A stretch of DNA of 64,000 nucleotides from Dehalococcoidia bacterium (GCA_965203975.1 CBDBDT010000001.1:904029-968028); one strand, 5' to 3'. Counted from the first letter of the stretch, positions 2,393 through 44,601 are shown. Numbers and translations are program-made. The notes: a model not told the origin generated them from the sequence alone.

Positions 2393-3340
2393 CTAGTCTA
2401 GCTCCTCGGCGTGGTTCACGAATGGCCCCGTTTTCACACCTGACATTACCAGTAGTAATGCCCCGGGATGTTTTTCATTGAGCGCGTTTTGGATGTTTTG
2501 AAGTTCCTTGCGAACGGCCTGTGCGAGTACTGCTACCGTTCCGAATGCCGCGAGCTGTCCGTCCATCACGAATGCAGTGTTGCCGATAGCTACTCGGCCT
2601 TGCTCAGATTGGACGAGGTACCGTAGGCTGTTCACCAAGGCCAGAATTTCCAGCGTGTCTCTGACCCGGCTGTGGCACTCTGCTGGGGAAGTGTTTTCCA
2701 AGAACTGGGTGTGGATCCGGAGGCCGTCTGTGGGTAGGACTTCGACACCGCATGCTGGGCAGTGATCTACTTGCCCAGGGTCAGGCATGCTCAGATTTTT
2801 TGTTGAGCAATCTGGATTCGGGCAGTCGTCGACTCTGTGGTGGGGACCAAGCAGGTGGTGCAGGGTTTCGGCGAAGGTTTCTCCTCCAACGCTTGCCTTT
2901 TCGAGTTCGCTGTTGAAGATTTCTCTGAACCAGGTTCTGGGATCTGTACCGTCTTTTTTCCCGGCGTTCATGCCTGGGAGTATCATGCCCAAGCTTTCGC
3001 CTTTCTCGGTTTCTCGCAGTAACCTCGGGCTGACTGCGCCGCTCTCTGGAAGGCGTTGTAGCGTTTCCAGCTTCTTCAGATCCATTACCACTACTCCCAG
3101 GGAGACCAAGCCGGCTTCCGTGGATGGAAGCGCCCCTGGGATCGGCTCGTAGATATTTGACCCGTCTATAGCTAGTATGTGAGTTCGCGATGTTCCTGCG
3201 GGGCAGGGTTGGAATGGAGGCAGGGGCAGGGGTTGCCCACTGTGCCTCTCTTGGAGTTCAGCGCGGAACGTCTCCACTACCCCGCTTTCGGCAATGGCCC
3301 GGATGGCTGCTAGCCCGGCGCGTTCGTCTTCGTACGGCAT
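2393..3340 (-). CDS. nurA: NurA-like nuclease with inserted zinc ribbon
   Basis: N-terminal ILAIDGSNIY and C-terminal AFVMDGQLAAFG resemble the NurA acidic motifs. It has a CPNPDCS...CPACG ribbon and starts 6 nt after the HerA-like stop. Confidence 0.65.
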   Translation of the reverse strand: MPYEDERAGLAAIRAIAESGVVETFRAELQERHSGQPLPLPPFQPCPAGTSRTHILAIDGSNIYEPIPGALPSTEAGLVSLGVVVMDLKKLETLQRLPESGAVSPRLLRETEKGESLGMILPGMNAGKKDGTDPRTWFREIFNSELEKASVGGETFAETLHHLLGPHHRVDDCPNPDCSTKNLSMPDPGQVDHCPACGVEVLPTDGLRIHTQFLENTSPAECHSRVRDTLEILALVNSLRYLVQSEQGRVAIGNTAFVMDGQLAAFGTVAVLAQAVRKELQNIQNALNEKHPGALLLVMSGVKTGPFVNHAEELD

Positions 3341-3346
3341 AGTGCT

Positions 3347-5575
3347 TCACAGCAACGGATGTTGGTTTGTGCGGTGATCGTTCTCTTCCATGGTCTCGCC
3401 ATTGTTGGGCGTGCTTGGGTCTTGGGCATCTTCAATGGCGAACTTGTCCAGTTGGACCGGCACTGTATACGCCTGGGACAGGGTTCTGATTCGGACGAAT
3501 CCCTGCTCGCTGACCTTGCCGATCTGGTCTGTGAAGTCGGCGAAGTCCATGTAGTCCGCCACGAACCGTCTCTCAGTGTTCGAGTTGAGGTAGGAAAGCA
3601 CCCAGTTGTCGGTTTCGGTAAGGATTTCTCGCATAACGGTACTGGGTGCCTGTGTTGCCAGTACCATCCCGATGTTGTATTTGCTGCCTTCCTTCGCCGT
3701 CTTCGCCCACACAGTTTGCAAAGCGTTCCGGGCGTTGGCGTTTGGCAACAGATTGTGAGCTTCCTCGATGTAAACGACGATGTGTCCTTCCGTCGCTTGG
3801 GACTCGTCGGGAGGCTTTGATGGATCATGTCGAGCAAGAGCGCTCCTGAACTTGGCCTGTTGGGACTGGAAGATGCGCCACATGACCCGCTCGGCCGCAG
3901 CTTGGTTTTGCTCCGGCTCTCCTGCTGACTGGTCAATGATGACTAGCTTGCCCTTCTCCAGGTCTTCGACTACGGCTTTGGCAAAGTCGTTCTCGGCTTC
4001 GGGATCGTGTTGCTCGTGCGCGATTTGGAATACCCGTGGACCGTTTGGTGTCCTAAAGATGCTGATTACCGCTTTCAACCGTTGGTCTGCCCAGGGTTCT
4101 CCACTTCCCTTCGGTCGGCTGATGTAAGCGTTCTCGAACGCTTGGTACGCCCCCCTGTTGTCCCTGACGAATTTGTCCAATGCGGTGAACACGGTTTGGA
4201 GCTGTGCCCAAGTGATTCTTCCTTGGGGTTCGTTCGCTCGCTTCAGAATCTCAGCCGCCTGATGGTACTCGGTTCTATTGTCGCTGTGCTCATTTTGGTC
4301 AAGGTCTAAGTGTTTGGTGATTTCTGGCCCGAGAAGGCTCCCTGTTCCACCCACGATCCTAAGTGATGGTTCACGAGGGGGGCGTAGCCCGGCGGCGGCG
4401 AGGGCGGTCTGGTATGCGAGAATCGTCCTTTGGTATCGTACCTGCGCCCCACGGCTGCCCGTGATGTTCTGCGGAACCGATATGTCGGCGTCACGGAATG
4501 CTGTGGTGTAGCGGTCTGTCTCTGCCTCCATGATGTTGTTGATGATCGCCCGGCCAGCCGTCAACTGTTCCAGTACAGCCTCAACTGATTCGAGCGTCAG
4601 TGGTGTCTGGAATGGGTCCCCGAAAAAGTTGAGCTTCATTACTTTGCGTTGTTTATCCCAATCTGGGGGCGGGAGTAAACCGTAAGTGGTTACTTCTGGA
4701 CCCCTAGGCAATCCTATGGTTTCGTGGACTCGATGCAGTCCCTTGCCGTCTTGGTAGGTATCCTGAGCGTATTCGCCGCTGAGGTCGAAGATGACCTGCC
4801 CCACTCGATGTTTGGGGTTGTCCTTGCGAATCTGGTAAATTAGCTCCGCTACAATTTTGAGGCCGTTAGATTTGCCGGAGCGCGACATGCCGAAGTAGGC
4901 GGTACGCCTTTTCAGGATATCTGTCGGGTTGATCCGGAAGTCCGCCCTTGTAACTCCGTCGGGGTCTGCAGCTGCGAACCTGGTGCGGCCTATTTTGGCC
5001 TCTTTCCGGGCGACCGGGATGTCGTTGGTTCGATGTTGGTGATTGACGATTAAGTCCAGCGACTCGGCATCTGGTTTCCACACCATCAGTTCATTGACGG
5101 CATAGTAGTTGGCGATGTCCTCAGCGTAGCGATATGTGCCGTCGTCTCTGGCGATGAAAGTGCCGAGCACCGAGCATTCCAGTCCGTGCAAGGACATTTT
5201 GTCTCTCACCCAATCCGGAAGTCGGTCTGCCCAGGGGCCTTGGTTTCCCGAGTCCTCTATGCTCTCTTGTCGGGTCTGGTCGTTAGCAGCCGCGGCGGGA
5301 AGGCGGGCTTCGCTTTGGATTCTGAGCAGGATGAACGACTCATCCCCTTCCTGGTTAACCTTGGCTGCCATCAGGAATCCATTCTTGGGCAGACCACCCG
5401 CCTGCTCACGGTCGTGGTCGTACACTGCAACAATAGCGTTGGTGTATGAAATGGTGTATACACTGCCGACGAATTTTGCCCGTTCACGGAACGGAGTTCG
5501 CCTGGGTTGTCCAGCACTTTGCTTCAATGATTCCAACAGGGAGGAGTTTTCCTCTGCAGATGTTCCCAGAACCAT
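3347..5575 (-). CDS. herA: HerA/FtsK-superfamily ATPase (DUF87-type)
   Basis: 742 aa with Walker A FGMSRSGKSNG and Walker B-like IVVYIEEAHNLLP. An N-terminal barrel-like segment reads GSVYTISYTNAIVAVYD. The ATQAPS motif is present, and AGGAG lies 10 nt upstream of the ATG. Confidence 0.85.
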   Translation of the reverse strand: MVLGTSAEENSSLLESLKQSAGQPRRTPFRERAKFVGSVYTISYTNAIVAVYDHDREQAGGLPKNGFLMAAKVNQEGDESFILLRIQSEARLPAAAANDQTRQESIEDSGNQGPWADRLPDWVRDKMSLHGLECSVLGTFIARDDGTYRYAEDIANYYAVNELMVWKPDAESLDLIVNHQHRTNDIPVARKEAKIGRTRFAAADPDGVTRADFRINPTDILKRRTAYFGMSRSGKSNGLKIVAELIYQIRKDNPKHRVGQVIFDLSGEYAQDTYQDGKGLHRVHETIGLPRGPEVTTYGLLPPPDWDKQRKVMKLNFFGDPFQTPLTLESVEAVLEQLTAGRAIINNIMEAETDRYTTAFRDADISVPQNITGSRGAQVRYQRTILAYQTALAAAGLRPPREPSLRIVGGTGSLLGPEITKHLDLDQNEHSDNRTEYHQAAEILKRANEPQGRITWAQLQTVFTALDKFVRDNRGAYQAFENAYISRPKGSGEPWADQRLKAVISIFRTPNGPRVFQIAHEQHDPEAENDFAKAVVEDLEKGKLVIIDQSAGEPEQNQAAAERVMWRIFQSQQAKFRSALARHDPSKPPDESQATEGHIVVYIEEAHNLLPNANARNALQTVWAKTAKEGSKYNIGMVLATQAPSTVMREILTETDNWVLSYLNSNTERRFVADYMDFADFTDQIGKVSEQGFVRIRTLSQAYTVPVQLDKFAIEDAQDPSTPNNGETMEENDHRTNQHPLL

Positions 5576-7268: not shown

Positions 7269-7652
7269 TCAGGCCTTTGCTGTAAAGGGCTCCAGCACTG
7301 CCAGGAGTTCCGCCATGCTGGTCAGGTCCTCCCTGATAGCCTCCGGGTCCAGGTCGCCGGCCAGCTCGTAGAAGTTTACGTGCAGGATCTCCGCCCGCCC
7401 ATGCAGGAATGGAAGGCGGTCGTTGCCGCTCAGCCGGCGGGCCTGGTTCATCACCCGGTGGAAGTGGCTGTGCCGGTCGTACTCCCAGCCCTGGACGAGA
7501 GCCACGGCCTTGGCCATGTGGGCGGCCGCGCCCCAGCCCTTCTCGGATGCCTGATGCAGGTCTCCGTCGGCCAGGTGCTGGCCGGCCCTGTCGAGGAACT
7601 CTCGTGCCTGGGTTGTGTGCCTGGCCGCTTCGGTGCTGTTTCCGTTGACCAT
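7269..7652 (-). CDS. PaREP1/HEPN-like helical protein
   Basis: 127 aa. AREFLDRAGQHLADGDLHQASEKGWGAAAHMAKAVA...LHVNFYE resembles the PaREP1/HEPN-like pattern (EK-WGA...KA, LH..FYE). Confidence 0.5.
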   Translation of the reverse strand: MVNGNSTEAARHTTQAREFLDRAGQHLADGDLHQASEKGWGAAAHMAKAVALVQGWEYDRHSHFHRVMNQARRLSGNDRLPFLHGRAEILHVNFYELAGDLDPEAIREDLTSMAELLAVLEPFTAKA

Positions 7653-7696
7653 ATCCTTCTATTGGCCGCTCTTGGCCCGCATGTCAACCGGCGCTC

Positions 7697-8095
7697 CTAG
7701 TCTTTTTCCTGGAGGACCTCGCCGGAAAGGGCGGTCACCCGGTCGACGTGGACCAGGACAGCGGCTCCGGTGCGTTCCGGGTCCCGGTCGAGTTCGCCCT
7801 GAACGGTGCGGGACATGACATTCTCGCGGACCGGGCCGCTCTCGACGACCTCGGCGGTCCCGTGGAACCGCCAGTTAATGCGGCGTTCCGGGTTCCGGTA
7901 GAACACGACAACCTGGGGATTGTCGGTCACGTTTTCCATGGCCGAGCGGCGGGCGCGTTCCCAGTAAGCCAGGGTGGTCGGGTCATATACCAGGACGCTG
8001 CCCTTCATGCTTATCTGGGGCCGCCCCTCGCCGGAGGCGGTGCCCACGATACAGCAGCAGCCATCGGCGAGGGCATTGTCCAACAGTTCCTGCAT
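7697..8095 (-). CDS. Pyridoxamine 5'-phosphate oxidase-family (FMN-binding split barrel) protein
   Basis: The start is moved to ATG 8095-8093 (GGAG upstream). MQELLDNALADGCCCIVGTASGEGRPQISMKGSVLVYD...VVVFYRNPERRINWRFHGTAEVV is typical of the family. The track's upstream extension is low complexity. Confidence 0.75.
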   Translation of the reverse strand: MQELLDNALADGCCCIVGTASGEGRPQISMKGSVLVYDPTTLAYWERARRSAMENVTDNPQVVVFYRNPERRINWRFHGTAEVVESGPVRENVMSRTVQGELDRDPERTGAAVLVHVDRVTALSGEVLQEKD

Positions 8096-8125
8096 TTCTC
8101 CGCTTATGTCAATCAATGTTCCCCC

Positions 8126-8209
8126 GGGCTTTGCACCAAAGCTCAAGCCTGAACCAAAAGTATGATTCAACTTCGAAGTTGAACCAGAACTAGGTGTTGA
8201 ACCAAAAGT
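8126..8209 (+). repeat. Left terminal inverted repeat with subterminal TGAAYCA motif array
   Basis: Terminal 15-mer. 20-mer TGAACCAAAAGTATGATTCA at 8150-8169. Perfect 18-bp palindrome TTCAACTTCGAAGTTGAA at 8166-8183. Further half-sites at 8180-8190 and 8198-8209. Confidence 0.6.
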
Positions 8210-8513
8210 CGGCCTGGTTGGGGCGATAATAGCAGAGATGAAGGCATGGAAGAAGCCCGTCCTGGATGGCAGGACGGGCCAGGTTTTTGTGTGGCATGTG
8301 GTGGGTTCTCTCCCAGGGAGGAGCATTACAATCGCGGTGAGGCTATCCGGAGGTGGTTGACCGATGGAATAAGCTGAGTGGAGCTACGAGGCTCTGCAAG
8401 TTAAACCGGGCGTCAGATTGCTCCTGACGCCCGGTTGGCTTTTGGGGTCTGAAGAGAACTGCCCGGCCGATGCCGGGCAGTTTTCAATTGACAAGAGCTG
8501 TATGAAGAACATC

Positions 8514-8542
8514 TTGACAAAAGGCGTTCCCAATGATAAAAA
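8514..8542 (+). promoter_or_regulatory. Sigma-70-like promoter (TTGACA, 17-nt spacer, extended -10 TGaTAAAAA)
   Basis: TTGACA at 8514-8519, a 17-nt spacer, TG at 8534-8535 and TAAAAA at 8537-8542. It lies in noncoding DNA upstream of two hairpins. Confidence 0.35.
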
Positions 8543-8641
8543 CCCGAACCGCTATTGTCAAAGAGGCGAGTGCAGAAGTTGGAAAACCTGCCTCGCCTCC
8601 TTTGGTTGGGGCGTGGAGTGGGATTAGGTCATGGAGTATTG

Positions 8642-8672
8642 AGGCCCCGGTGCTTCCTCACCGGGGCCTTTT
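8642..8672 (+). terminator. Intrinsic-terminator-like hairpin (last of five in 8255-8672)
   Basis: AGGCCCCGGTG cttcct CACCGGGGCCT followed by TTTT. It has an 11-bp perfect stem. Confidence 0.5.
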
Positions 8673-8686
8673 CGCGGGTTGGGGGG

Positions 8687-8962
8687 TTAGGGGGCTATGG
8701 TTAGAGTTGCGGTTGGGATGGATTGTATCTCGCCCTCGGCTATGTCTAGGGGTGAGAGAAGGTCGCTGGGGGAGATGAGTGAGAAGAGGTCCTTCGGGGA
8801 GGTTGCTCTGATTTGCAGGTGCCCATCGGCCGAGCGGTTGATAGTTAGCATGAGGGTGATACCTTCCCCGTCGTCAAGTGTGTGGGTATATCCTAGGGAC
8901 TGTCGAGCGGATTCGTGCCAACCGTTGACGAGGTCGGATAGCAGTTCCGAGGTGATTTCCAT
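8687..8962 (-). CDS. Hypothetical protein (91 aa)
   Basis: ORF-track entry with no recognisable motif. It sits immediately downstream of the 8986-9276 gene on the same strand. Confidence 0.45.
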   Translation of the reverse strand: MEITSELLSDLVNGWHESARQSLGYTHTLDDGEGITLMLTINRSADGHLQIRATSPKDLFSLISPSDLLSPLDIAEGEIQSIPTATLTIAP

Positions 8963-8985
8963 TGGATTCTCATTGTGGGTTTGGG

Positions 8986-9276
8986 TTAGTGGATAGGGAT
9001 AGCGTATTCAAGTAGGTCTAGGCGGGCGAGCCAGTTGAGGACTCGTAGGGGTAGTTGGCCTGCCCAAGAATTTATGGGGGTTACGAAGAGCGTGTCGTTC
9101 TCGTCGAGAATGTGGAGTAGTGCTTCTACCACTTGCCCGGGGTCCTTGCTGGTGTGGATTGCCCACGAGGATTGTGCGACTCGTATCCACGCTGGATAGG
9201 ATTTGAGTGCGGCGTACAGGTCGGGGTATTTCTGGATGGGGCTATGCAGATCGTAGGTTACTAGGAGTGTATTCAT
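8986..9276 (-). CDS. Hypothetical small protein, possibly Cas2/VapD-like fold
   Basis: The start is moved to ATG 9276-9274 (GGGAGGA upstream). The pattern MNTLLVTYDLHSP...WIRVAQSSWAIHT...DTLFVTPI is reminiscent of small beta-alpha-beta-beta-alpha-beta proteins. This is a weak inference. Confidence 0.45.
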   Translation of the reverse strand: MNTLLVTYDLHSPIQKYPDLYAALKSYPAWIRVAQSSWAIHTSKDPGQVVEALLHILDENDTLFVTPINSWAGQLPLRVLNWLARLDLLEYAIPIH

Positions 9277-9842
9277 CTCCTGGGTCCTCCCTGTGGTCTC
9301 TTTACAGTATGCGGGTCGCGGCTCTTCCAACTCGGGCAATTCTCCGAGCCATGCGGGTAGCTGGGCTGTTAGAGAGCGGGCGAGGCGGGTTAGCTGCGCG
9401 TCTTCGGCTAGTTGGTGGAGTGCGGCGTCCGCGACGCCGAAGAGGGGAGGGTTTTTTGCGGGGAGTGGACATGGTCAACCTCTCTTGGCTCCCCTGAAGC
9501 GAGGGGCGAGAGCTTGACGCGACCGGGTTGTTCTGTGTTAGGGTAACCCCGGCCCCATGTAACTCGCCTGATCAGCGCAGGGGGCTGTTTCGGATTTGGC
9601 CCGCAGTTGTGGCTGCGGGCCTTTCCCATGGTACCCGGAAATTTTGCCCCGTTCAAGTTATGAGAGGCAAGTGCATTTGGTCTGTTAACCTGGCGACCTG
9701 CCCTTGGCGTGGAACCTGGCGGAAAAAATCCGACTTTTGGTTCCGCTTATTGACCCTGTCAGTCCGAGAGTGGCACTTGGCCGCAAACGTCGTAGAGCGG
9801 CGGTCGCGGCGCTTGCGGATGGAGCCTCGGGCGGCGGGTTAC

Positions 9843-10334
9843 CTACCCGTGAGAATTCACATCTAACGAGAACTTCAACCTGCGGCCTTTGTATGCCCTT
9901 CCAGTCCCTGTGCATACGCGAGGCCAAACTGTAACGTTCTCCCTTTGTCCGACTGTTATGTCAAAGTCATTCAAACATTTACATAGGGTTTGGGCGGGAA
10001 AGTACCAATCTTCCTGACTCCCTGAACGGATAGTCGCTGGTAGTTCAGGGTGGGAACGAGGGGGTGGGGCAGCCATGAGAAGGGGGAACCCCCAATTCCG
10101 GGCGAACATAACACGGATGTCTTCGACTTCGACATCCACTCTGTCTACATTCCTGATGGTTACTTTCAGAGCATTCTCCGGAAAGCCATATTGCCTAGTT
10201 ATTCTGCCGCGTTCCTCCAATATCTGAATTTTAATGCTTGGACGATAGTGTCTGTAGTACCATGTTCCAATTAAGGATATTACGGCGGTTAACGCACCTA
10301 CGGCTAAACTAATTTCGGTGACCAATGATGGCAT
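9843..10334 (-). CDS. Membrane-anchored hypothetical protein
   Basis: ATG at 10334 follows GGGAGAAGG. An N-terminal TM helix reads SLVTEISLAVGALTAVISLIGTWYY. GC is low (a 60-nt spot count gave about 42 percent). Confidence 0.55.
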   Translation of the reverse strand: MPSLVTEISLAVGALTAVISLIGTWYYRHYRPSIKIQILEERGRITRQYGFPENALKVTIRNVDRVDVEVEDIRVMFARNWGFPLLMAAPPPRSHPELPATIRSGSQEDWYFPAQTLCKCLNDFDITVGQRENVTVWPRVCTGTGRAYKGRRLKFSLDVNSHG

Positions 10335-10355
10335 CCTTCTCCCTGACAATCTCCC

Positions 10356-10616
10356 CTACGGAAACTCCTGCACCACCGCCACATGCTCGGCCAGGGCGAT
10401 GCCCTTGGCGACGTCGGAGCGGTAGGCGGGCGGGATGTCGGCCTGGATGACGATCTGCGCCGCCGAGAGGTGGGCAATCGGGGTGGCGAGGATGATGCCG
10501 AACAGGTGGATGGTCACCAGGGCCTTCCCGCTGGCCTTGCCCCGGTCGTACATCTCCCGCAGCCGCCCCTCCAGCTCAGCCGTCCATTCCCGGAGGGTTT
10601 GGGGGTGGGTGGTCAT
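10356..10616 (-). CDS. Hypothetical soluble protein (86 aa)
   Basis: ATGA overlap (10616-10613) with the upstream small membrane ORF. Confidence 0.5.
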   Translation of the reverse strand: MTTHPQTLREWTAELEGRLREMYDRGKASGKALVTIHLFGIILATPIAHLSAAQIVIQADIPPAYRSDVAKGIALAEHVAVVQEFP

Positions 10617-10822
10617 GGGTCAGGTCTTGCGCCAGCCAGCCAGAACCCTTCGGAGAGAAAATAGGTGTAGGCGCATGCAAGGACCCCTGCCCCCGTGGAT
10701 AAGACTTGTTTTGTTAACAAGCCGGAAGTCCCAACATCGGTCGGCAGAGCGCAGAAACACCACACGCCACAGCCCGCCCCGACGGCAATAACAACCGCCA
10801 TTCTTACGTCTTCTACAATCAT
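10613..10822 (-). CDS. Small two-TM membrane protein (69 aa with the shorter start)
   Basis: ATG at 10822 is preceded by GAGGAAG. Hydrophobic stretches are MAVVIAVGAGCGVWCFCAL and GAGVLACAYTYFL. The longer track start (10927) would overlap the upstream gene by 70 nt. Confidence 0.4.
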   Translation of the reverse strand: MIVEDVRMAVVIAVGAGCGVWCFCALPTDVGTSGLLTKQVLSTGAGVLACAYTYFLSEGFWLAGARPDP

Positions 10823-10856
10823 TGTGTCTTCCTCAGACAGATCCTCTACGACAGTT

Positions 10857-11201
10857 TCAGCGGATTTCCCTCGTCGTATCGCCAATACGTCTCCCATTCG
10901 GCACACCTGGGCCGAGTACGTCCTCAACAGGACCTCCTCCCACTATGACCGGAGGGCGTGTAGGGTCAAGTTTGTCGAATATTGCTACCAACAGCAACGC
11001 CGAAGCACCGGATATAACTGCGAAAGGAATCGCAACGGCTTTCAAAGACTCTGGAACCCAAGGAAGGAACACGGACACGGCGGTGAGCACCGCGATACCT
11101 TCCCCTGCAATCATGATCCACTCCCTCAAGGGCCGCATCCGTGCAAAGAACACTTGAACCTTAGTGCGTCTCATGAATGAGGACAAACCCGATAGTGGCA
11201 T
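10857..11201 (-). CDS. Two-TM membrane protein (114 aa)
   Basis: Hydrophobic segments are WIMIAGEGIAVLTAVSVFLPWV and AVAIPFAVISGASALLLVAIF. It starts 9 nt after the HNH pseudogene stop. Confidence 0.5.
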   Translation of the reverse strand: MPLSGLSSFMRRTKVQVFFARMRPLREWIMIAGEGIAVLTAVSVFLPWVPESLKAVAIPFAVISGASALLLVAIFDKLDPTRPPVIVGGGPVEDVLGPGVPNGRRIGDTTREIR

Positions 11202-11210
11202 GATTTCTCC

Positions 11211-11638
11211 TTAACCCACGATCTCCGCCAGCCGGGCTACCAGGTACTCCTGGGGGCGATCGCCCTTGAGGGAGTTGCAGGCCCCGCAGAGGAGCTGGAG
11301 GTTCTCGATGTGGTCCGTCCCACCTCGGCTCTGGGGATGATATGATCCACGGTGAAGTTGCGGAAGGGGAACATCACCCGGCATCCGGAGCACAGCGCTT
11401 CCTGCTGCCCGAAGAGGACGTGCTTGTTCTGGTGGTAGTTGACCGGGGCCTCGATGTCCGTCCGCCGGGGGATGTCGGTGGCGGCCTGCGACGCTTCCCG
11501 GTAGGTCTTGTAGTCCTCCCGGAGATGATCACCCATCTCCCGAAGTGCTTGCGTTCCAGGTCCTCCTGCATGAGGGCGTCGGCCCTGACCTGGTTCAGCG
11601 GAGGATGCTCGAACTTAACAATGTCCTTCAACCTGCCT
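11211..11638 (-). pseudogene. HNH endonuclease pseudogene (two 1-nt frameshifts; 5' end severed by IS1)
   Basis: Three consecutive frames carry ...FEHPPLNQVRADALMQEDLERKHFG / GDHLREDYKTY...CSGCRVMFPFRNFTVDHIIP / SRGGTDHIENLQLLCGACNSLKGDRP. The original ATG at 12526-12524 is in frame across the IS once one TSD copy is removed. Confidence 0.7.
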
Positions 11639-11717
11639 CTCTTCTCGGTATTCCCGACGTGTGTTGGTGTAGGGTTTAGAATAGTGGGCGGTAGCGAGAG
11701 TTGTATGGCAGTGAGGT

Positions 11718-12041
11718 GTGGTGATGGCTCAACCCAGGGTTTATCGAGACGGGATGCAATGTCCCAGGTGTGGTTCGAACTGGCTTCCCAAGCACGGCAA
11801 GTCCCGGGGCAAGCAGAGATACCGCTGCCAGCAATGCCTTTACCACTTCACCCTTGATGCCGAGCATCCCCACCAGCCCGAGCGAGTGAAGAACATGGCT
11901 GTGGCCATGTATGCCGAGGGCAACAGCATTGAGGCCATCGGCCGGATGTTGGGTATGAAAGCCGGGACAGTCTACTCCTGGGTCAAAAAAAGCCTGCCAA
12001 GCCCGGAATCTGTTGCGGATCGTGGTCGAGCAGCGCAGTGA
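11718..12041 (+). CDS. insA: IS1 InsA-like protein (zinc finger plus HTH)
   Basis: CPRCGS...YRCQQC zinc-finger pattern and an HTH-like segment NSIEAIGRMLGMKAGTVYSWVKK. Confidence 0.85.
   Translation: MVMAQPRVYRDGMQCPRCGSNWLPKHGKSRGKQRYRCQQCLYHFTLDAEHPHQPERVKNMAVAMYAEGNSIEAIGRMLGMKAGTVYSWVKKSLPSPESVADRGRAAQ
11985..11991 (+). promoter_or_regulatory. A7 slippery run in the insA/insB overlap
   Basis: gtcAAAAAAAgc lies inside the 11959-12041 frame-overlap window. Confidence 0.6.
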
Positions 12042-12468
12042 CCGCAGCCGGGGACGGGGGTTGCCCAGGGTCATATCCTTCGATGAGATGTGGAGCTACG
12101 TTGGAGCGCGGCGTCGGGAAAAACGCCGGGAGTGCTGGGTGTGGACGGCGGTAGTGGAGGAGGCTGACGGACGGAAGTGGGTGGACTTTGAGGTGGGAGA
12201 CCGCTCCGAGGCCACCTTCTTGCGTCTCTATGGGCGGTTGCCTGAAGCGGAGAGGTATCGCACGGACGCCTACCAAGTGTACGGATGGCTGCCGCGGGAC
12301 CGGCACGAGGTGGGCAAGGGCAGCGAGGTGAACCGGAACGAGGGACTGCATTCCCGTTTAAGGGACAAGTTGAACCGTCTTCACCGCCGGACCAAGGGCT
12401 ACAGCAAGAGCATGACCATGCTCAGCGACTCCATTGCCTTGGTCTGCGTAACTCTGAAACTGACCTAA
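12013..12468 (+). CDS. insB: IS1 InsB-like DDE transposase part
   Basis: VISFDEMWSYVG...CWVWTAV...YRTDAYQVY...NEGLHSRLRDKLNRLHRRTKGYSKS is typical of IS1 InsB. The frame is open from 11959. Confidence 0.85.
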   Translation: MRIVVEQRSDRSRGRGLPRVISFDEMWSYVGARRREKRRECWVWTAVVEEADGRKWVDFEVGDRSEATFLRLYGRLPEAERYRTDAYQVYGWLPRDRHEVGKGSEVNRNEGLHSRLRDKLNRLHRRTKGYSKSMTMLSDSIALVCVTLKLT

Positions 12469-12522
12469 CACCAACACACGTCGGGAATACCCTCTTCTCC
12501 TTGAGTCCCCCCTCGTCTCCGT

Positions 12523-13527
12523 TCATCCGATCTCTCCAATCCGCGCACGTTCCACGGCTTGGCGTGCTGCGCGGAGGAGTCCCTCTTTGTTGGCCATTTT
12601 CTGACTCTGGTGCCTTTCGTCCTGTTCCCGGAGTTGAGTCTGCATGGCGTACCAGTCATCCGAGACTCTTGTGTCTCGTGTTCTTGGTGTCCACTTGATC
12701 GCCAGCATCCGGGACTTTTCTAGGGAATCTCCGGTTCGTCCGTATAGGAAGCGGCAGTTGGATTCGTGGTAGTAGTCGCGGTTTAGGGTTAGGGCTTTTT
12801 CGTTATCTATGACTGGTCCCTTTTCGAGCAGGTTCTTCTTGGTCACCCAAAGGTATACCAAGAGGCACTTGCTGTTGATGGGAAGAATGACTTGGCTACC
12901 CGGATTCCGGAGATCGCGGTCTCCTCCCACCGAGGTTCGCACGGCCAGAACCGGTGAGTCACCGATTATGAACGATCCATCTTGGGTCGCGTAGTTCGCC
13001 GTCAATCCCATGGATCCCAAGACGGTCAGGATACCGTTGTCTTCCCCGTCGAACAGCAGCTTGAGATAGTCGTGGGTGAGTCGTTCGTCCACGAACTCTT
13101 TGGTGTCTTGTTCGTTGACTAGGCCCCCAGAGGACATGAACGCATCTGTCAATTCTCCGGCGGTAGATGCGATGATTTCTTCCCTCACATTGGCTTTGTC
13201 AATCCCGTTGTAAGGGTCGTTTATCAACATCGCGGCGACTAACCGGTCGAGGGATTTTCGTTCCCTCCGGGTTATCGAAGTGGTTCCCTTCCTGATCTTT
13301 TCGATGACGGGGGTTGCGTCCTGTTCGATGCTTCTCATCAGCCCATCGTCTGCGTCGGTCAGAAGTCTTTGCTTTGAAGCTACTTCAGAAACCTTGCAAA
13401 CCTCTATTGTTCCCGTGGTCTTGTCCAATCGGAGGACCCGGCTGGCTTTCCCTTTCAAGCCAAACCCTTTCAGAAGGAACTGGGGAGTCCAGTGTTGGTT
13501 AGTGTCGTTCCAAGTGCTCGGCTGCAT
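12523..13527 (-). CDS. DUF4238-like protein
   Basis: 334 aa. The N-terminal QHWTPQFLLKGF matches the H-x-P-x-F-L-L/K-x-F signature I associate with DUF4238. Its stop forms an ATGA overlap with the original HNH start (12526-12523). Confidence 0.6.
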   Translation of the reverse strand: MQPSTWNDTNQHWTPQFLLKGFGLKGKASRVLRLDKTTGTIEVCKVSEVASKQRLLTDADDGLMRSIEQDATPVIEKIRKGTTSITRRERKSLDRLVAAMLINDPYNGIDKANVREEIIASTAGELTDAFMSSGGLVNEQDTKEFVDERLTHDYLKLLFDGEDNGILTVLGSMGLTANYATQDGSFIIGDSPVLAVRTSVGGDRDLRNPGSQVILPINSKCLLVYLWVTKKNLLEKGPVIDNEKALTLNRDYYHESNCRFLYGRTGDSLEKSRMLAIKWTPRTRDTRVSDDWYAMQTQLREQDERHQSQKMANKEGLLRAARQAVERARIGEIG

Positions 13528-13538
13528 CTCTCAACCTA

Positions 13539-14084
13539 TCAACTTCGAGAGGTCTGGGGCATGGTGGCGTCGTCCCGGTCTCCGTAGACCACCAGCTCCC
13601 CATCCTCCCAGTATGCCATCCCGTCCACCACCTCCACCGTCTCCACGCTCACCCGGCACACCCGCCCCAGCAGGTCTATCACCCGCTCCTTGTGGTCGGA
13701 GAAGCGATAGGTGTTGAACCGCTCCCGGATGGTCGGGTCCCGGGGCTTACGTTCCTTGTACTGGTCCAGCACCCACTCCAGCGCCGACCGGCTCCCCAGC
13801 CGGTACTCCCACGCCTTCGCCGGAACGCCGGACAGCGTCGTCCGCTCGTCCAGCGTAATCGTCCCCCGTTCCTTGTCCGCCCGCAGGATGGTCCGCTTCG
13901 GTTCGACATCCTCTCTGTCCACCCGCTCCAGCTGATACGGCTCCACCGACTCGAACCCGACGTGCAGGTCCAGCAGCCGCTGCCCCATCTCCGCCCAGCG
14001 GTGGAAGTCCTGGTAGAAGGGCAGCCTCGGAAACTCCCGCAGCAGGTCCACCGCGTACTCCTGCAGGGAGCCCAATCCTGGCAC
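13539..14084 (-). pseudogene. C-terminal fragment of a type IIG (MmeI/type ISP-like) restriction-modification enzyme
   Basis: LSGVPAKAWEYRLGSRSALEWVLDQYKERKPRDPTI resembles the C-terminal specificity-domain tail of type ISP/IIG enzymes. No methyltransferase motif IV lies upstream. Confidence 0.6.
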
Positions 14085-14264
14085 AACGTCACTCGCTCGT
14101 TCTTGGTTGGGTTGGGCTAATGCAGGGTAAAATAAATGGGGAGGGCGATGCTAAGTCCTTCGGCGGGCCCCATGTTGACGCAAAACGGACGGTGCGCCTA
14201 CCATAAGCCACCTGTCGTCCGGTCGTCAGGCCATACAGACTTTTTCGGTAATCAAGAGGTGGAT

Positions 14265-14558
14265 ATGCCAGAGCCTTTCGAGATTTTTGCCGACGCGTTT
14301 ACCGTGACGGTAGGCGCTTGGGGATCTAGTATGAGCTTCCAATTGCGAGAGGCCCATCCAGAAGCAACGTCGATTAAGCAACCAGAACGTCTGGGCACTG
14401 TAAGGATGAGTACCGAGCACCTAAAAGCCATGGTCTTTATACTCAGACGACAAGTACTACAATATGAGCAATCTCAGGGGGTGAAGTGTGATGTGCCCAC
14501 ACAAGTCTTGGCACAGATGCAGATTCCCCGAGAAGATTGGGATGTCTTTTGGAGTTAA
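14265..14558 (+). CDS. DUF3467-like small protein
   Basis: ATG at 14265 follows AAGAGGTGGA. FADAFTVTVGAWGSSMSFQLRE...VRMSTEHLKAMVFILRRQVLQYEQ fits my recollection of DUF3467. GC is low. Confidence 0.5.
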   Translation: MPEPFEIFADAFTVTVGAWGSSMSFQLREAHPEATSIKQPERLGTVRMSTEHLKAMVFILRRQVLQYEQSQGVKCDVPTQVLAQMQIPREDWDVFWS

Positions 14559-14571
14559 GGAGGAGGTTGTA

Positions 14572-15042
14572 ATGGCTGCCGCAGGGACCATAAAGTTCAC
14601 GGATTCGGAATCCATCACCACCGAGTCTTCCGATTTTAGCTGTCGTAACTTCGCCGAGGAAACTTTGCTGCAGACTAGCAAAGTCGCGGTCGTAGGCGTA
14701 GGCACAATTTCCTCAGGTTTCTCGGGGTACACTTTTGATGTCTTGCTATGTGACAAATTCAAAACACTGGCGGAGCGTTGGAAGGCAGAGACCATTCATA
14801 TATCATCGTTGTCGGATATAGAGAGCCACAGTGCATACCAAGAAATCATCAGCATGGGGCAAGCGGTAGTCCCATTGATCCTCTGGGAACTGGTCATTGA
14901 CCCAGATTGGTGGTTCATGGCCCTGGATTCGTTGGTGGACACGCCACCTCCTCTGGAAGGGGACGACGGGGACTTAATGAGATTGAGCGCGAAGTGGGTC
15001 GATTGGGGCGAATCCAATGGCTACCTCCCCTCGACCCAATAA
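14572..15042 (+). CDS. Hypothetical protein (156 aa)
   Basis: ATG at 14572 follows a strong RBS, AAGGAGGAGG (14557-14566), placed just after the upstream stop. No motif was recognised. Confidence 0.55.
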   Translation: MAAAGTIKFTDSESITTESSDFSCRNFAEETLLQTSKVAVVGVGTISSGFSGYTFDVLLCDKFKTLAERWKAETIHISSLSDIESHSAYQEIISMGQAVVPLILWELVIDPDWWFMALDSLVDTPPPLEGDDGDLMRLSAKWVDWGESNGYLPSTQ

Positions 15043-15460
15043 CGTATTCGGTCTCTTTGATCAACTCAAAGGCTTTCGCGTTACGAGTCCGCGTACCCGC
15101 ATATACAATTGTATAGCTTGGGCGGCAGGAAGCGACAATGCTTGGTGGTGGCCACAAGGGCAACGTTCCTACTGGCCTCTGACAAAAAAGAGCTCGGAAG
15201 ACGTTCCGACATTTGAGGCCGCCTTTCGGACGCTTGGGTATGAACCATGCGCGGACGGTGACTTGGAGCAAGACGTCGAGAAAGTTGCCATATATGTCAA
15301 AGACGGGAAAGTAAAGCATATGGCACGCCAAGTCCCCAGCGGTTGGTGGACCAGCAAACTTGGAGCAGCAGAAGATATTGAGCATGAGAGCCCCGCCGAG
15401 TTGGAAGGGAAAGAATACGGGCAGGTAATGCGTTATATGGGCCGCCAACGGTCGGCCTGA
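15017..15460 (+). CDS. Hypothetical protein with YNCIAWAAG motif (possible cysteine hydrolase)
   Basis: 147 aa. An N-C dipeptide in RIYNCIAWAAG with downstream His residues loosely recalls papain-like/NlpC-type hydrolases. This is weak. Confidence 0.5.
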   Translation: MATSPRPNNVFGLFDQLKGFRVTSPRTRIYNCIAWAAGSDNAWWWPQGQRSYWPLTKKSSEDVPTFEAAFRTLGYEPCADGDLEQDVEKVAIYVKDGKVKHMARQVPSGWWTSKLGAAEDIEHESPAELEGKEYGQVMRYMGRQRSA

Positions 15461-15587
15461 TCTTCGGGCAGGCCGACCTAGCCTCAGAGAATTTAAGGGA
15501 CTAGAAGACTCTCCAGCCCTTCTTTTTCGAAAACAATACCTACCTACCTCAACCTTGAGGGCGATTTGATTACAGGTTCTATCCCTG

Positions 15588-16733
15588 CTAGACCATGGGC
15601 ACCGACAACCCCGACCTTGATGTACCGGGGTCGACGGGCAGGTAATTGATCAGGTTGGTGACGAAGGTCCCCGTCCCCGTCGCCGGGTCCAGGATCTGCA
15701 CGTTCTCATCCGCCAGCGTCTTCCCGAAGTGCTTCTCCAGCAGGTAGTCCGCCCCCCGGATGATGAAGTCCACCACCTCGTTGGGCGTGTACACCACCCT
15801 CAGCCGGTCCGCCGCCGCCGGGTTGTACGCCGTGTAGAAGTCCTCGTAGATGGCCTTGAGGAACTGCTGCTTCTCCCCGTAGTCGGCGATCTCGTCCGCC
15901 GCCCGCCCGATGACCCCGTAGTAGGCCCGCAGCCGCTCGATGGCCTCCCGCCGCACGTCGCCGGTGAAGAAGGTCCGCTCCAGCCCGTCCAGCTGCCGCG
16001 CCACGTTGTTCTCCCGGTGGAACTGGTCCTCGGCGAACACCCGCAGGAAGATATCCTTGGTCAGGATGTGCTGCAGCAGCATCTCCCGCACGTCCGCCGA
16101 TGAGACCGCCGGCCCGATGGTCTTCCGGCACAGGTCCAGGAAGGATGCCGCCGCTTCCTGGTACTCCGGGTTCTCCTCCTCTGCTTCCGCCACCGTCGCG
16201 CGCAGGTTCTCCAGCACCGCCGGCAGGTCCGCCTTGAACTGGCCCTGGGCCTGCCGGAACTCCTGGATCTCCGGCAGCTCGTAGTCGAGAAACACCCGGA
16301 TCAGCCGGTGCAGCTCCCCGTCCCGGGACATGTCCACCCGCATCGCCTCGCTGCCGTTCTGCACCAGCACCGCCGTCTGCGAGTCCTCGAAGATGATGTT
16401 GTCCCTGGGGTAGCCCCGGTTGAACTTGGCCTGTATCTCGGCCTCCAGGTCGTCGTGGCTGTCCTTCGCCTCCCAGTACCCCCGCGCCATCCGCAGCGAG
16501 TCCTTCACCGTTCCGTCGGGGCGGTTGCTGTGCGCCGCGCTCAGCTCGTCCACCAGGGCCAGCTTCTCCCGGTGGTCCCGGCAGTACGAGTCCAGGCACA
16601 CCGCAAAGGCCCGCCGGATGCTCTGCTCGTTGTCCGACCCGCCGAACTCGATGAACCGCTCCAGGTCGGCGTGATACTGCTCAATGTGCGGGTAAGAAGG
16701 CATAACCCGATTATACTCCAGCCCGCTCTCCAT
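15588..16733 (-). pseudogene. N-terminal fragment of a type IIG (MmeI-like) restriction-modification enzyme
   Basis: PD-(D/E)xK-like RPDGTVKD...GYWEAKD, then the methyltransferase lead-in VYTPNEVVDFIIRGADYLL and SAM motif I ILDPATGTGTFV. Homology stops right after motif I. Confidence 0.7.
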
Positions 16734-16986
16734 CCCCGCCCCGCATACAGCATTGAACGCGGTTCTTCCAGAAAAGCGTTCTTGTCGTCCGAGAGCCCCT
16801 CGCTGTTGCAGCCGGTTCCGTCTACGCCGGATTGACTACGTTCAACCAGGCTCTCGGCCTCCGGTGTCACCGTCAGGCTGACTTCGGCCGGTTCGCGGGC
16901 TTGGGAGGCTCAACATGGGGACCGTGAAGAACATGTAGGGCGCTGGGCGGGTGGGTTAGCTGGTTTCGCTGGGCCTGGCTTTGAGC

Positions 16987-17068
16987 TTGAACCAAAAGTA
17001 CCTTCTGAATCATTAGTCGGAAGCTGAATCAAAAGTATGGTTCAAATTGTGGTTTTGGTGCAAAGCCG
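16987..17068 (-). repeat. Right terminal inverted repeat with subterminal TGAAYCA motif array
   Basis: Terminal 15-mer at 17054-17068. 20-mer TGAATCAAAAGTATGGTTCA at 17025-17044. Half-sites at 17006-17017 and 16987-17000. Confidence 0.6.
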
Positions 17069-17360
17069 TTCCCCCACATATCCACCGCCGGCCGACTCTC
17101 GGGGCCGTTACCCTGAGAAGGGAACGGAGGATCGGCCGAGCGTGGCCGCCGGCAACGGTGGCCAGACTGAATATAGTATAATGCGCTGGATTTCCCGAAA
17201 GCCGTCCTACGCCTTCAACCGGTTGAAACCGGAGTCCCGGAGGCGTCGGCGCGAGGCGTAACAGTTACGAATACCGGCCGATTCTAGACCACCGGTTTCC
17301 GGTTGGCAACGACAGCGGCGCCAGTACCGGGGCCAGTCCAGCGTACACTAGGAGCAGGCA

Positions 17361-20300
17361 GTGTCCCAAGCGATTGAAATTCACGACCTACCCCAATCCG
17401 GCCAGTTGCAGGTTGTCTACCGAAAGCCGGATGCCACCCTCGAAGCCCCTCCTTCAGAATTCTCCAACCCGCTGGAACCATCCGACCACCGGGAGCTCGA
17501 CTGGTACTTCCGCGAGTACGCGGACCAGCCCTTCGGCCCCAGCCAGGCCCGTTCGGAGGCGGTGGAGACCGGGCTGAGAAACCTGGGACGGGTGCTGTTC
17601 GAATCAACGTTCAACGCCAACCCGGAAGCGTCCGCCATCTACGCCCAGGCTTCCGGGGACGGCCTCGGGGAAACCCGGCTGGAGATCGTTTCCTCCCGGC
17701 GGGAATTCCTTACCCTGCCCTGGGAACTACTGAACGAGACGGAAGCTGGGTATGCGGCCACCCAGATGGCCAGTGTCATCCGCCGCAGTCCAACCGGAGC
17801 CGCCGGTGAATTCGACCCGGAACTGCCAACGGACCAGCTCAACGTCCTGCTCATCGCCCCGCGTCCATCGTTGGATAACGGCCTTTTCCGGGGCGGGTTG
17901 GCCTCCGAGACCGCCGTTGCCCTGGAGGGCCTGGAGGTGCAGGCCGAGCTGGAATACGTCAGCCCGCCCGGTTTCCAGGGGCTGACCGATGCCCTGGAAA
18001 ACAACCCCAGGTATTACCACGTTGTCCAACTCGACGGAATCACGGCAGGTGATGAACCCGGGACAATAATCCTGGAAACCGGCGCAGGACCGGAGCCGGT
18101 GCCGACAGCCCAACTGGGCCAAACACTTGAATCGGCGCAGGTGCCGGTGGCGTTCCTCACCGGGGCCGAAGGCGACCATCAGGAAACTTGGGGCACGCTG
18201 GCGGAAGCGGCCTCGGACCTGGCGGAGCACGGGGTGCCGGTGGTGGTGTGCCTCCCATATCAGCTGGCGGACTCGGCCAGCCGGGAAATGTTTGTCCGCC
18301 AGTTCTACCAGTCCCTGGCGGGCGGCATGGATGTCGCAGCCAGCGCGGCCACGGCGCGAAACGCCCTGATGGAATCGCCGGTGCGGGTGATTTTGTCCGG
18401 CAAGCAGGTGATGTGGGACTGGGTTGCGCCGGTCACGTTCCAGTCCCGGGAATATTCTCCCAAGGCTATCGAAGGGGAGGCGCCCGACCCATTGGCCCCG
18501 CCGATGCTCCAACCCCAACAGCAGGATGTGAACGTAGAGATGCAGCTGCCCGCCGCCGGGGCCTTCGGCCTGGTGGGCCGGCAGGGAGAACTGCACCGGC
18601 TGGAGCGAATGTTCACCGAGTCGCCCGCGGTGATGCTGACCGGTCCGACCGGGGGCGGCAAGACGGAGCTCTGCCTGGGCCTGGCCAGGTGGTTCCAAAG
18701 GATTGGCAGGAAACAGCGGCCTGGCGGGGTGTTCTACACGACCTTCGAGGCGTCCCACCCGTCGGGGCTGGAGCGAATAGTACACGAAATCGGGACGAGC
18801 GTGGCGGGTCTGGAGTTTCCCGATTTGAGCCTGGACCAGCAGCGGCAGTGGGTGGTGGAGTACCTGCAGCAGCACCCTTCCCTGCTTATCTGGGACAACG
18901 TGGAGAACGCGGCGGGTTTTCCGTCAGGATCGCCCGGGCTGCTGGAACCGGAGGAACTTAGAGGACTGAACGAGTTCATCGCCAGCGTGACGGGTGAGGG
19001 ACAAAGCTGGGTCCTGCTGGCTACCCGGCGGGATGGGGAAAACTGGCTGTCCGTCCCCCATCAAACCATGACCCTGCCCGGCCTGCAGGGCGGCGACCGC
19101 AAGGAGCTGGCCGCCGCGATACTTTCCCAGGCCGGCGTTGAGCCGGGACGGTTGTCCCCGGAAGTAGTGGATGTCATCGACTTCGTCGAGGGCAACCCGC
19201 TGGGGATGAAGATCGTGCTGCCGCGATTGAAGGACGTCCCGGCCACGGCACTGCTGGCCGAACTCCAGCGGACGCTGGAGAGCCTTCCTGAATCGGCCCT
19301 GGAAGAAGGCAGGCTGCCGTCGCTGACGGCGACGATGGAATTTTCATGGGGAAAGATGTCCCGCCGGAGCCGGACCCACCTCCCCTTCCTTGCCCTGTTC
19401 CAGCGCCGGGTGATGATGGACATTGTGAACCACATGACTGGCGAAGCCGGGTACAAGGGAGCCATGGGCGAGGAACTGGGTTGGGGAGCGACCCGGACGC
19501 TGCTGCGGACGGGGCTGGCCGATGGCTTCCTGGAAGGAGTGTCTCCCAGCGTGTACCAGATTCATCCGGCGCTGCCCTGGTTCTACGGGCGCAAGCTGGG
19601 ACAGCAGGTGGCGACGGCCCGGCTGGGCGACCTGGAACAGGAGTACGTGCGGGTCTACGCGGACACGGCGGACTACTTCATGGAGTCCCTCTACGAAAAC
19701 CAGGACGCGGGAGTGACGGCAATCCTCGCGGAGGAGGGCAATCTGACCCAGGCTCTGGGCCTGGCCCTGGAGGCCCGTCATTGGGACAACGCTCAGCTCC
19801 TGGTCCAGCCGCTGGCCCAGGTCTACCGGATGCAGAAGCGTTTCGCGGAACTGCGTCGCTTGCGGCGGCAGTTGCTGGAAGTTGTCGGCGTGACGGCGGA
19901 GGAAGCGGCATCCAATGCTGCCGAGGAGTTCTGGACCTACCTGCTGGGAACGGAAGCCAGCGAGTCGGTGGATGTGGGAGACCTGGAGTACGCCGAGGAC
20001 CTGAACCGCCAGCTGTACGACTACCTTTCCGGCCTGGAGGGAAGCTCCGAGGACCCCAGGGTGGCGGCGGTATCCCACCAATTCGGGCAGATTGCCCTGC
20101 GCAGGTTCCGGCTGGACGAGGCGGCAGGCTGGTTCGAGCAGTCCCTGGGAATTATCGAGAACGGGGAGGACCAGGCCTCGGTGGCCGACGATTACTTCGC
20201 GTTGGGACAGGTCAAGCAGCACCAGCGCTACTACACCGAGGCCAAGGAGCTGTATCAGAAAGCCCTGGACATCCACCAGCGTCTCCCCGACGAGGAGGAG

Positions 20301-38621: not shown

Positions 38622-38718
38622 GGGAGTGGATGGGGCCCGGTGGCTCTTGCGGTCTTCAAAACCGTTATGCCTCGTGAAGAGCGGGGTAGGTGGGTTCGAC
38701 TCCCTCGCACTCCCGCCA
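38622..38718 (+). tRNA. selC: tRNA-Sec (anticodon UCA)
   Basis: Hand-folded. The acceptor is GGGAGTG/CACTCCC plus GCCA. The D-stem is 6 bp with the 4-nt loop CGGT. The anticodon loop is CTTCAAA with TCA at 38656-38658. The variable arm has a 7-bp stem. The T-loop is GGGTTCGACTCCC. One mismatch each is tolerated in the T stem and the 8th acceptor pair. Confidence 0.85.
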
Positions 38719-44423: not shown

Positions 44424-44560
44424 CCCAATCCTTTCACCTCTCTTCCCGTCATTCCCGCGCCCTCTCCCGTCATTCCCGCGCAGGCGGGAATCCAGACCCC
44501 CGTCGTCTGTTCCCCACAGTATCATGTTGACCGTTAACTGCCAGTTTGACCAAACTGACA
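44415..44560 (+). repeat. Extended MITE-like element, copy 7 (left arm, partially duplicated hairpin core, right arm)
   Basis: Left arm GAAGTCTGACCCAATCCTTTCACC. Half-core at 44445-44460 and full core at 44466-44503. The right arm GTCTGTTCCCCACAGTATCATGTTGACCGTTAACTGCCAGTTTGACC is shared with 48143-48290. Confidence 0.85.
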
Positions 44561-44601
44561 CTCGAGCCATTGACCTTGTACTGCTGGACGAGGAGTAAAA
44601 G

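Follow-up and report, generated by a model that had tools for sequence, protein, structure and literature searches.

Elements of the IS903 group, in the IS5 family, that were captured by trapping are about 1050 bp long, have inverted repeats of 15-27 bp and make 9 bp duplications, and those captured from Paracoccus mostly contain a single open reading frame (ORF), that of the transposase (PMC3281130). Insertion sequences that carry passenger genes inside their inverted repeats alongside the transposase are called transporter insertion sequences (tIS), and miniature inverted-repeat transposable elements (MITEs) have the ends of a family but no transposase, and depend on one acting in trans (PMC9330008). 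Here we describe a segment at positions 8127-17067 of a 64,000-nucleotide stretch of DNA from a Dehalococcoidia bacterium (GCA_965203975.1, CBDBDT010000001.1:904029-968028), the whole of which we call the window, and show that this segment very probably belongs to a large DDE transposon family akin to the IS903 group, in which it is a non-autonomous carrier of cargo.

The likeness to IS903 and IS903B lies in the DDE_Tnp_1 transposase found in autonomous relatives of the window element, and it extends to the first 7 nt of the ends (GGCTTTG) and the 9 bp duplication, both of which are common to IS903B and the window element. The differences are equally clear. Members of the IS903 group are about 1.05 kb long and have simple inverted repeats, whereas members of the present family have asymmetric ends of about 85 bp with multiple boxes, measure 2.1-6.7 kb when autonomous, and always carry passengers; their transposase, unlike that of the IS903 group, often has a SWIM zinc finger and scores below the NCBI cutoff for the IS5_2 model. 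The window element is further set apart from that group by its 8.9 kb length and by having no transposase of its own. The autonomous relatives fit the definition of a tIS; the window element, its transposase gone, is not one in the strict sense. It resembles a MITE in having family ends and a duplication of family length without a transposase, but at 8941 bp it is far beyond miniature size, which spans tens to a few hundred bp. The element is an IS903-like insertion sequence turned cargo carrier.

The transposon runs from 8127 to 17067 of the window, a length of 8941 bp. Its inverted arms (8127-8174 and 17020-17067) are 48 nt long and 75% complementary, and form the longest inverted repeat within 7500-17700. 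The terminal 14-mer GGCTTTGCACCAAA is the same at both ends, and exact copies of it in the window number two, at 8127(+) and 17067(-), where by inference about 5e-4 would be expected by chance (2 x 64,000 / 4^14). The sequence-only reading, an earlier interpretation of the window made without database searches, had claimed such inverted ends and also an internal 20-mer at equal offset in both; both features are present, and in the 20-mer a 12-nt box, TGAAYCAAAAGT, forms an imperfect palindrome. When as many as 2 mismatches are tolerated, this box has 8 matches in the window versus 2.9 expected, and 6 of the 8 lie within the element: five in its ends (8150, 8180, 8198, 16988 and 17025) and one at 9733(-). 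The target-site duplication, which the same reading had put at 7-8 bp, proved to be 9 bp, its two copies being identical at 8 of 9 positions, and it is because of this length that an apparent 1-nt offset had been seen at the left end. In the family to which we assign the element, each end is a module of about 85 bp made up of GGCTT followed by TGCACCAAAAGT and then further TGAAYCAAAAGT boxes spaced by about 18-20 bp. A type 1 end, such as the left end here, has the box 2-4 times in direct orientation; a type 2 end, such as the right end here, has a terminal box and then inverted or palindromic boxes. The limits of the window element are thus composed as follows:

8118..8126, left copy of the duplication, GTTCCCCCG, overlapping the likely ribosome-binding site of a PNPOx-family gene
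8127..8211, + strand, left end module, type 1: GGCTTTGCACCAAA and direct boxes at 8150-8161, 8180-8191 (degenerate) and 8198-8209
16983..17067, - strand, right end module, type 2: GGCTTTGCACCAAA, then palindromic or inverted boxes
17068..17076, right copy of the duplication, GTTCCCCCA

An empty site of the kind that the sequence-only reading had predicted was found in a relative. The closest homologue of the flanking PNPOx-family gene (95% identity) is on an ENA metagenome scaffold (L045), in which this gene and a 1224-aa STAND gene are adjacent and divergent, 294 bp apart. The window without positions 8127-17076 aligned to this scaffold with no gap (590/651 positions, 91%), and the scaffold reads ...CAATGTTCCCCCGCAT... 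at the junction, with GTTCCCCCG present once. Because the alignment is gapless and the scaffold has a single GTTCCCCCG, we concluded that 8941 bp were inserted here, creating a 9 bp duplication, and that this is a true transposon insertion. The right copy of the duplication, GTTCCCCCA, departs from the empty site by a single change, G to A, which postdates the insertion. A second uninterrupted site, more diverged, was found in an NCBI assembly (L046), again with the same two genes adjacent. The insertion point lies within the PNPOx-STAND spacer, on the upstream side of PNPOx and 10 bp away from its start codon.

When the terminus plus first box was scanned in one genome per species, it was found at 42 genome loci, mostly in metagenome-assembled genomes of Dehalococcoidia and several in Blastocatellia or other Acidobacteriota. 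The sequence outside the GGC termini was unrelated between loci. Comparison of the window with these 42 loci by blastn gave no long matches; the likeness of the window element to family members is confined to about 85 bp at each end, the left end being 74% identical over 85 bp to an end in L020 and the right end 89% identical over 85 bp to a type 2 end in L011. A composite transposon, with a complete insertion sequence at each end, was considered and rejected on account of this limited likeness. The sequence-only reading had suggested looking for further copies of the termini and for a cognate transposase, and both were found, as in these examples:

L028: 160 bp, a MITE made of two end modules alone, without transposase; perfect 9 bp duplication TACTCGATA
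L002: 1604 bp, without transposase; perfect 9 bp duplication TCAGCCCGC
L001 together with L008: 3828 bp, with transposase; perfect 9 bp duplication CCGTGCATG
L132: 2890 bp, complete and with the box type of the window, with transposase; perfect 9 bp duplication GGCGGGAAA
L033, L030 and L012: 2.1-3.5 kb, with transposase; no duplication

Derivatives without a transposase but with perfect duplications therefore exist in this family, namely L002 and L028. Extra or tandem ends occur near complete copies (L033 at 3065 and 4820, L020 at 2694-4486, L022 at 4084 and 4434), and in L033 a second type 1 end lies 1.75 kb outside the element's own. The arrangement of these ends suggests that use of alternative ends may be one route of cargo capture. 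Family members also contain IS3-family elements with orfA and an orfB bearing an rve domain (L016, 2208-4406; L006, 3640-4970), the surroundings of L132 are rich in insertion sequences, and in Dehalococcoidia the family elements are found in junkyard-like regions.

The transposase that accompanies these ends placed the family near IS903. In L012, L030 and L033 the gene reads toward the type 2 end, with its stop codon 37-50 bp from the type 2 terminus, and encodes a 338-aa DDE_Tnp_1 protein (PF01609, E 6e-30). The best NCBIfam model was IS5_2, matched over its full length with 127.6 bits against a curated cutoff of 140 (family range, 104-128 bits); the ranked models were those of IS5, IS1182, IS982 and IS4, and no ISL3 model was among the matches. 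The nearest relatives on annotated plasmids were the IS5-like elements ISPa35, ISVa2, ISAba12 and IS903B, at 25-32% identity, and alignment with ISPa35 and IS903B (about 28% identity) brought the D, D and E residues into register. IS903B in a Klebsiella plasmid is 1057 bp long; its inverted repeats read GGCTTTGTTGAATAAATCG, and it is flanked by the 9 bp duplication ATAAAAAAA. We considered whether the DDE_Tnp_1 gene of L012 and L030, which have only 1358 bp in common, belonged to an unrelated insertion sequence, and rejected this since the common stretch begins exactly at the type 2 terminus and 29 metagenome homologues are similarly flanked. Across the family, the ends are linked to a single DDE_Tnp_1 transposase.

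The family was also met in metagenomes. JGI metagenomes were searched by back-translation of the transposase alignment, which gave 80 loci (L048-L127) at 47-58% identity, and both GGCTTTG termini were present around the transposase gene in 29 of the 80. These 29 end-bounded elements are 2.48-6.7 kb long and have the same asymmetric end design. Seventeen have perfect 9 bp duplications, seven have duplications of 10 bp (L053, L060, L077, L093, L106, L112 and L124), and one has a duplication matching at 8/9 positions; the seven 10 bp duplications indicate that the stagger is not strictly fixed. The box sequence varies by lineage, taking the forms TGCCTCAAAAGT, TGCCCAAnAA, TGCACAACG and TGTTCCAAAAGT. 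The metagenome transposases are about 410 aa long and have, for example in L063 and L069, an N-terminal SWIM zinc finger (PF04434, E 1e-9; CxCx(n)CxH) before the DDE domain; like those from genomes, they fall under the IS5_2 cutoff. Over 18 complete elements the transposase was the sole conserved gene. The family is very abundant, with at least 7,661 clusters at 90% identity (E <= 1e-20) from uncultured bacteria, mostly in soil metagenomes. None of the 120 best transposase matches was named by any source, and the literature on tIS in IS5, on SWIM with IS5 and on defence cargo of insertion sequences did not describe the family, which is thus apparently unnamed in the databases and literature searched (ISfinder and TnCentral were not among them).

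We scanned 48 passenger ORFs from duplication-flanked copies against Pfam, and about 34 of the 48 had no match. Those that did belonged to the families HTH with Peptidase_M78 (three ORFs), N6_N4_Mtase with Mrr_cat, N6_Mtase, RE_SacI, HSDR_N and HSDR_N_2 (one ORF each), PIN, PemK/MazF, PLDc_2, AAA_22 / nSTAND1, HARE-HTH, a proteasome-like protein and DUF6941; L051, which has no duplication, carries a P63C-domain protein as its passenger. All complete copies carry passengers, and most of those that can be recognized are genes for restriction-modification, toxin-antitoxin or other functions associated with defence, so that the impression of defence-type cargo gained from the window alone holds for the recognizable cargo of the family.

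The cargo of the window element occupies 8.8 kb between the end modules and comprises about ten ORFs. The list given by the sequence-only reading (a split type IIG gene, an operon of DUF4238, HNH and predicted membrane protein genes, and an IS1 element) was broadly right, and, apart from the IS1-like element, the segment has neither transposase nor integrase, as that reading had stated. From left to right the cargo contains:

8687-8962 and 8986-9339, - strand, small ORFs of unassigned family, within 8212..9842
9340-9842, non-coding stretch, within 8212..9842
9843-10349, - strand, 168-aa ORF with a hydrophobic N-terminus, read as a membrane protein by inspection of its translation
10356-10616, - strand, HTH_73 protein (E 1.6e-14)
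10613-11201, - strand, small ORFs; like the two preceding entries and the HNH gene, they lie in the downstream part of the DUF4238 operon, 9843..11631
11211-11393 and 11237-11536, - strand, HNH nuclease gene split by a frameshift, with HNH positions 1-29 and 20-47 in different frames
11647..12491, + strand, IS1-like element of 845 bp with 29-nt inverted repeats, DDE_Tnp_IS1 (E 8e-10) and an InsA-like zinc ribbon plus HTH
12523..13527, - strand, gene of a 334-aa DUF4238 protein (PF14022, E 2.4e-14)
13539..14084, - strand, C-terminal fragment of a type IIG restriction-modification gene (profile positions 862-1012 of 1024)
14136..15460, + strand, lower-GC, opposite-strand cassette of three ORFs, one of which (15017-15460) encodes a DUF7689 protein (PF24738, E 4.5e-41)
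15588..16733, - strand, N-terminal fragment of the type IIG gene (profile positions 6-361 of 1024, E 5.8e-106), with a complete N-terminus

Profile searches gave no family matches for the cargo proteins of 8212-9842, and Rfam and tRNA scans found nothing within the element; when 9340-9842 was folded, the z-scores reached only -2.4 and -0.95. In this stretch a lone box at 9733-9744(-), CCGACTTTTGGTTCC, has a degenerate string resembling a terminus, cacttggccgcaaacg, at the appropriate spacing, and by inspection the region of about 9730-9788 may, faintly, be the relic of a decayed inverted type 1 end inside the element. Many of the related contigs are low-coverage long-read assemblies, and frameshifts and variation in ORF length, including the frameshift in the HNH gene of the window, may be sequencing errors. 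The IS1-like element has its own 8 bp duplication, CTCTTCTC, at 11639-11646 and 12492-12499; it is placed between the DUF4238 and HNH genes, interrupting the operon 9843-13527(-), and has no relation to the outer ends.

Adjoining the right end, the type IIG module gave information on the origin of the cargo. About 500 middle codons of the type IIG gene have been replaced by the cassette of about 1.5 kb. A Pfam match had pointed to a type ISP enzyme with a truncated N-terminus; this was rejected, as PADLOC assigned it to type IIG, with a length of about 1024 aa, a complete N-terminus and a replaced middle. The type IIG gene and cassette occur together without transposon ends in two other assemblies: L128 9985-13091 is 90.3% identical to the window module over 3112 bp, and L130 2130-4422 is 95.9% identical over 2293 bp, with the homology ending 5-14 bp upstream of the type IIG start codon. 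The presence of the module in these assemblies without the ends indicates that it predates its capture. The sequence-only reading had held that the same cargo found in related genomes without the end repeats would speak against a transposon; this was observed in part, for the 3.1 kb type IIG module only, and it tells of the origin of the cargo while leaving the evidence of the empty site and the duplication intact. The dN/dS ratio was 0.21-0.23 for the N-terminal fragment and, in comparison with L128, 0.23 for the C-terminal fragment, and these values of about 0.2, which were unexpected, indicate that the module is not simply decaying. Homologues of the N-terminal fragment number more than 1500, and the best 120 were all 363-662 aa long, none of full length. 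Given the dN/dS values, the split arrangement may represent a rearranged but working system and not a pseudogene. PaREP1 and DUF4238 genes are also present near the module in L128. In L130, a stretch of 126 bp that lies upstream of the type IIG gene (2022-2145) is 74% identical to window positions 44451-44576, and this common stretch may be a regulatory or repeat sequence.

We propose that in this family a DDE_Tnp_1 transposase, about 340-430 aa long and bearing a SWIM domain at the N-terminus in its full-length versions, acts on two asymmetric ends of about 85 bp. The transposase would bind the 12-nt boxes, which we regard as its putative binding sites because of their number, spacing, orientation and co-variation with transposase lineage, and would pair the two ends. 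Cleavage would then occur at the GGC termini, with a 9-nt staggered cut in the target, the 9 bp duplication itself being observed. In the present case the element was inserted into the spacer of 294 bp that separates PNPOx from STAND, duplicating 9 bp, and it would have been mobilized, like a very large MITE, by a transposase supplied in trans from an autonomous copy elsewhere in the genome. The sequence-only reading had also taken the segment for a transposon without its own transposase bearing accessory, defence-type cargo, and in this respect it was borne out.

Several observations weigh against this interpretation and must be set beside it. In the left end the first box is degenerate (AAAGCT, not AAAAGT), and one base differs between the two copies of the duplication. 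Complete-looking copies in L012, L030, L033 and L016 have no duplications, from which it follows that recombination between copies is common in the family. The transposases that adjoin ends with TGAAYCAAAAGT boxes are without the SWIM domain and may be defective; the domain is present in P0265, an 80% identical homologue, and on L131, a 3x long-read contig without recognizable ends, there is a transposase gene whose product has a SWIM domain and shares 80% identity with the enzyme of L012. No autonomous copy is visible within the 64 kb window, which is the sole part of the source genome covered, and a scan of JGI metagenomes for a second copy of the window element, with the pattern GGCTTTGCACCAAA-N9-TGAACCA-N6-TGATTCA, gave 0 matches; in protein look-ups the DUF4238 and DUF7689 cargo proteins had no exact record. 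With neither an autonomous nor a second copy visible, mobilization in trans is therefore indistinguishable from loss of the transposase after insertion.

Such a loss is the alternative that deserves the most attention. It accepts the same family and the same insertion but supposes that the element arrived as an autonomous transposon, with its own gene, which was later removed by internal deletion or rearrangement. All 18 of the complete elements compared hold both transposase and passengers, the lengths of the 29 metagenome copies bounded by ends all fall within 2.5-6.7 kb, and later events did take place inside the window element, as witnessed by the IS1-like insertion with its duplication, the frameshifted HNH gene and the possible end relic at about 9730-9788. 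Yet a tblastn comparison of the family transposase with the window found no remnant in 8127-17067 even at E = 10 and nothing significant elsewhere in the 64 kb; transposase-less copies with perfect duplications are known in L002 and L028; and the type IIG module beside the right end is under purifying selection, not debris. We regard a later loss as doubtful, though by no means far-fetched. Much less probable is a history that began with the insertion of something small, such as a MITE of about 170 bp or an insertion sequence of 2 kb, and in which the 8.8 kb of cargo entered between its ends afterward by other means. A 160 bp MITE of two modules does exist (L028), the 3.1 kb type IIG module does occur elsewhere without these ends, and the IS1-like element did enter the interior secondarily; but apart from that element there are no nested repeats, duplications or recombinase to mark a secondary insertion, cargo between the ends is the rule in the family, and the cargo would have had to arrive by several separate insertions, all within a target of about 100 bp.

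The other alternatives concern the kind of transposon. The ends of ISL3 elements begin GGCTCTT and their duplications are 8 bp long, and the sequence-only reading had tentatively placed the segment in that family, as a non-autonomous member. The GGCT termini and a duplication of nearly equal length, with an 8-nt exact match inside that of the window, are points of likeness. They are outweighed by the 9 bp length that the empty site gives, by the 9-10 bp duplications of 25 relatives, by the multi-box ends, and by the transposase family, since the gene between such ends is DDE_Tnp_1 and no DDE_Tnp_ISL3 was found; moreover, the first 7 nt of the ends, GGCTTTG, are the same as in IS903B. We therefore rejected the ISL3 affiliation as very improbable. 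The ends of Tn7 and Mu are asymmetric and contain several repeated protein-binding boxes, and the asymmetric multi-box ends of the present family recall them, so that the boxes might be TnsB/MuA-type sites or, in a genomic island moved by a site-specific recombinase, arm-type sites. The element, however, encodes neither an integrase nor an rve-type transposase nor an AAA+ partner; the family has a single DDE_Tnp_1 gene as its sole conserved gene, with no rve protein or ATPase, its duplications are 9-10 bp and not 5 bp, and its target sequences are mutually unrelated. An origin of this kind is hardly credible. We accordingly retain the reading of the segment as a non-autonomous member of the IS903-related family.

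The insertion may also have affected the genes around it, which are arranged as follows:

7697..8116, - strand, PNPOx-family gene of 139 aa with a TTG start at 8116, flanking and outside the element
17281..17309, - strand, promoter-like site TTGCCA-17-TAGAAT in the spacer, aimed at PNPOx, a consensus match only, conserved in the empty-site relative

The TTG start at 8116 is supported by the PNPOx homologues, which are 139 aa long with the N-terminus MIDISGEMQ. A further promoter-like sequence is present at 17170-17185 in the PNPOx-STAND spacer, and the promoter-like sequences of the spacer are conserved in relatives. A PaREP1/HEPN-family gene, 7269-7652(-), lies directly downstream of PNPOx on the same strand. 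The 8.9 kb element now stands between PNPOx and the predicted promoter-like site at 17309-17281, and judging from this arrangement the insertion would cut PNPOx and the downstream PaREP1/HEPN gene off from that conserved site. Elsewhere in the window, a selenocysteine tRNA gene is present at 38622-38718(+) (Rfam, 67.4 bits; ARAGORN anticodon TCA).

Pack-MULEs of plants, which belong to the Mutator group, carry captured segments of host genes between family ends, make 9-10 bp duplications, and have long ends with multiple transposase-binding repeats and a transposase with a SWIM domain. The present family is analogous to them in non-autonomous carriage of cargo, in duplications of 9-10 bp, in long repeat-bearing ends and in the SWIM zinc finger, and differs from them in that its catalytic domain is of the IS5 type (PF01609) and not of the Mutator/IS256 type, its hosts are bacteria, and its SWIM domain is N-terminal. 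We suggest, tentatively and with somewhat more doubt than conviction, that the family spawns large transposase-less derivatives, of which the 8.9 kb window element would be an example, that move in trans. The family would then be to bacteria what Pack-MULEs are to plants, and in Chloroflexota and Acidobacteriota it would give defence genes a vehicle distinct from others.

The family blurs the line between insertion sequence and unit transposon, combining IS903-like GGC termini and a 9 bp duplication with a SWIM domain, long ends and obligatory cargo, and the co-variation of the 12-nt box with transposase lineage gives rise to a direct hypothesis for end recognition. Because the transposase falls under the curated IS5 cutoff and the window copy has none, automatic annotation will miss such elements. 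The window element provides a clean natural case in which a simple DDE transposon transported a restriction and defence-type block of about 9 kb, as the empty site proves, and it comes from hosts, the uncultured Chloroflexota, whose mobile elements are poorly described.

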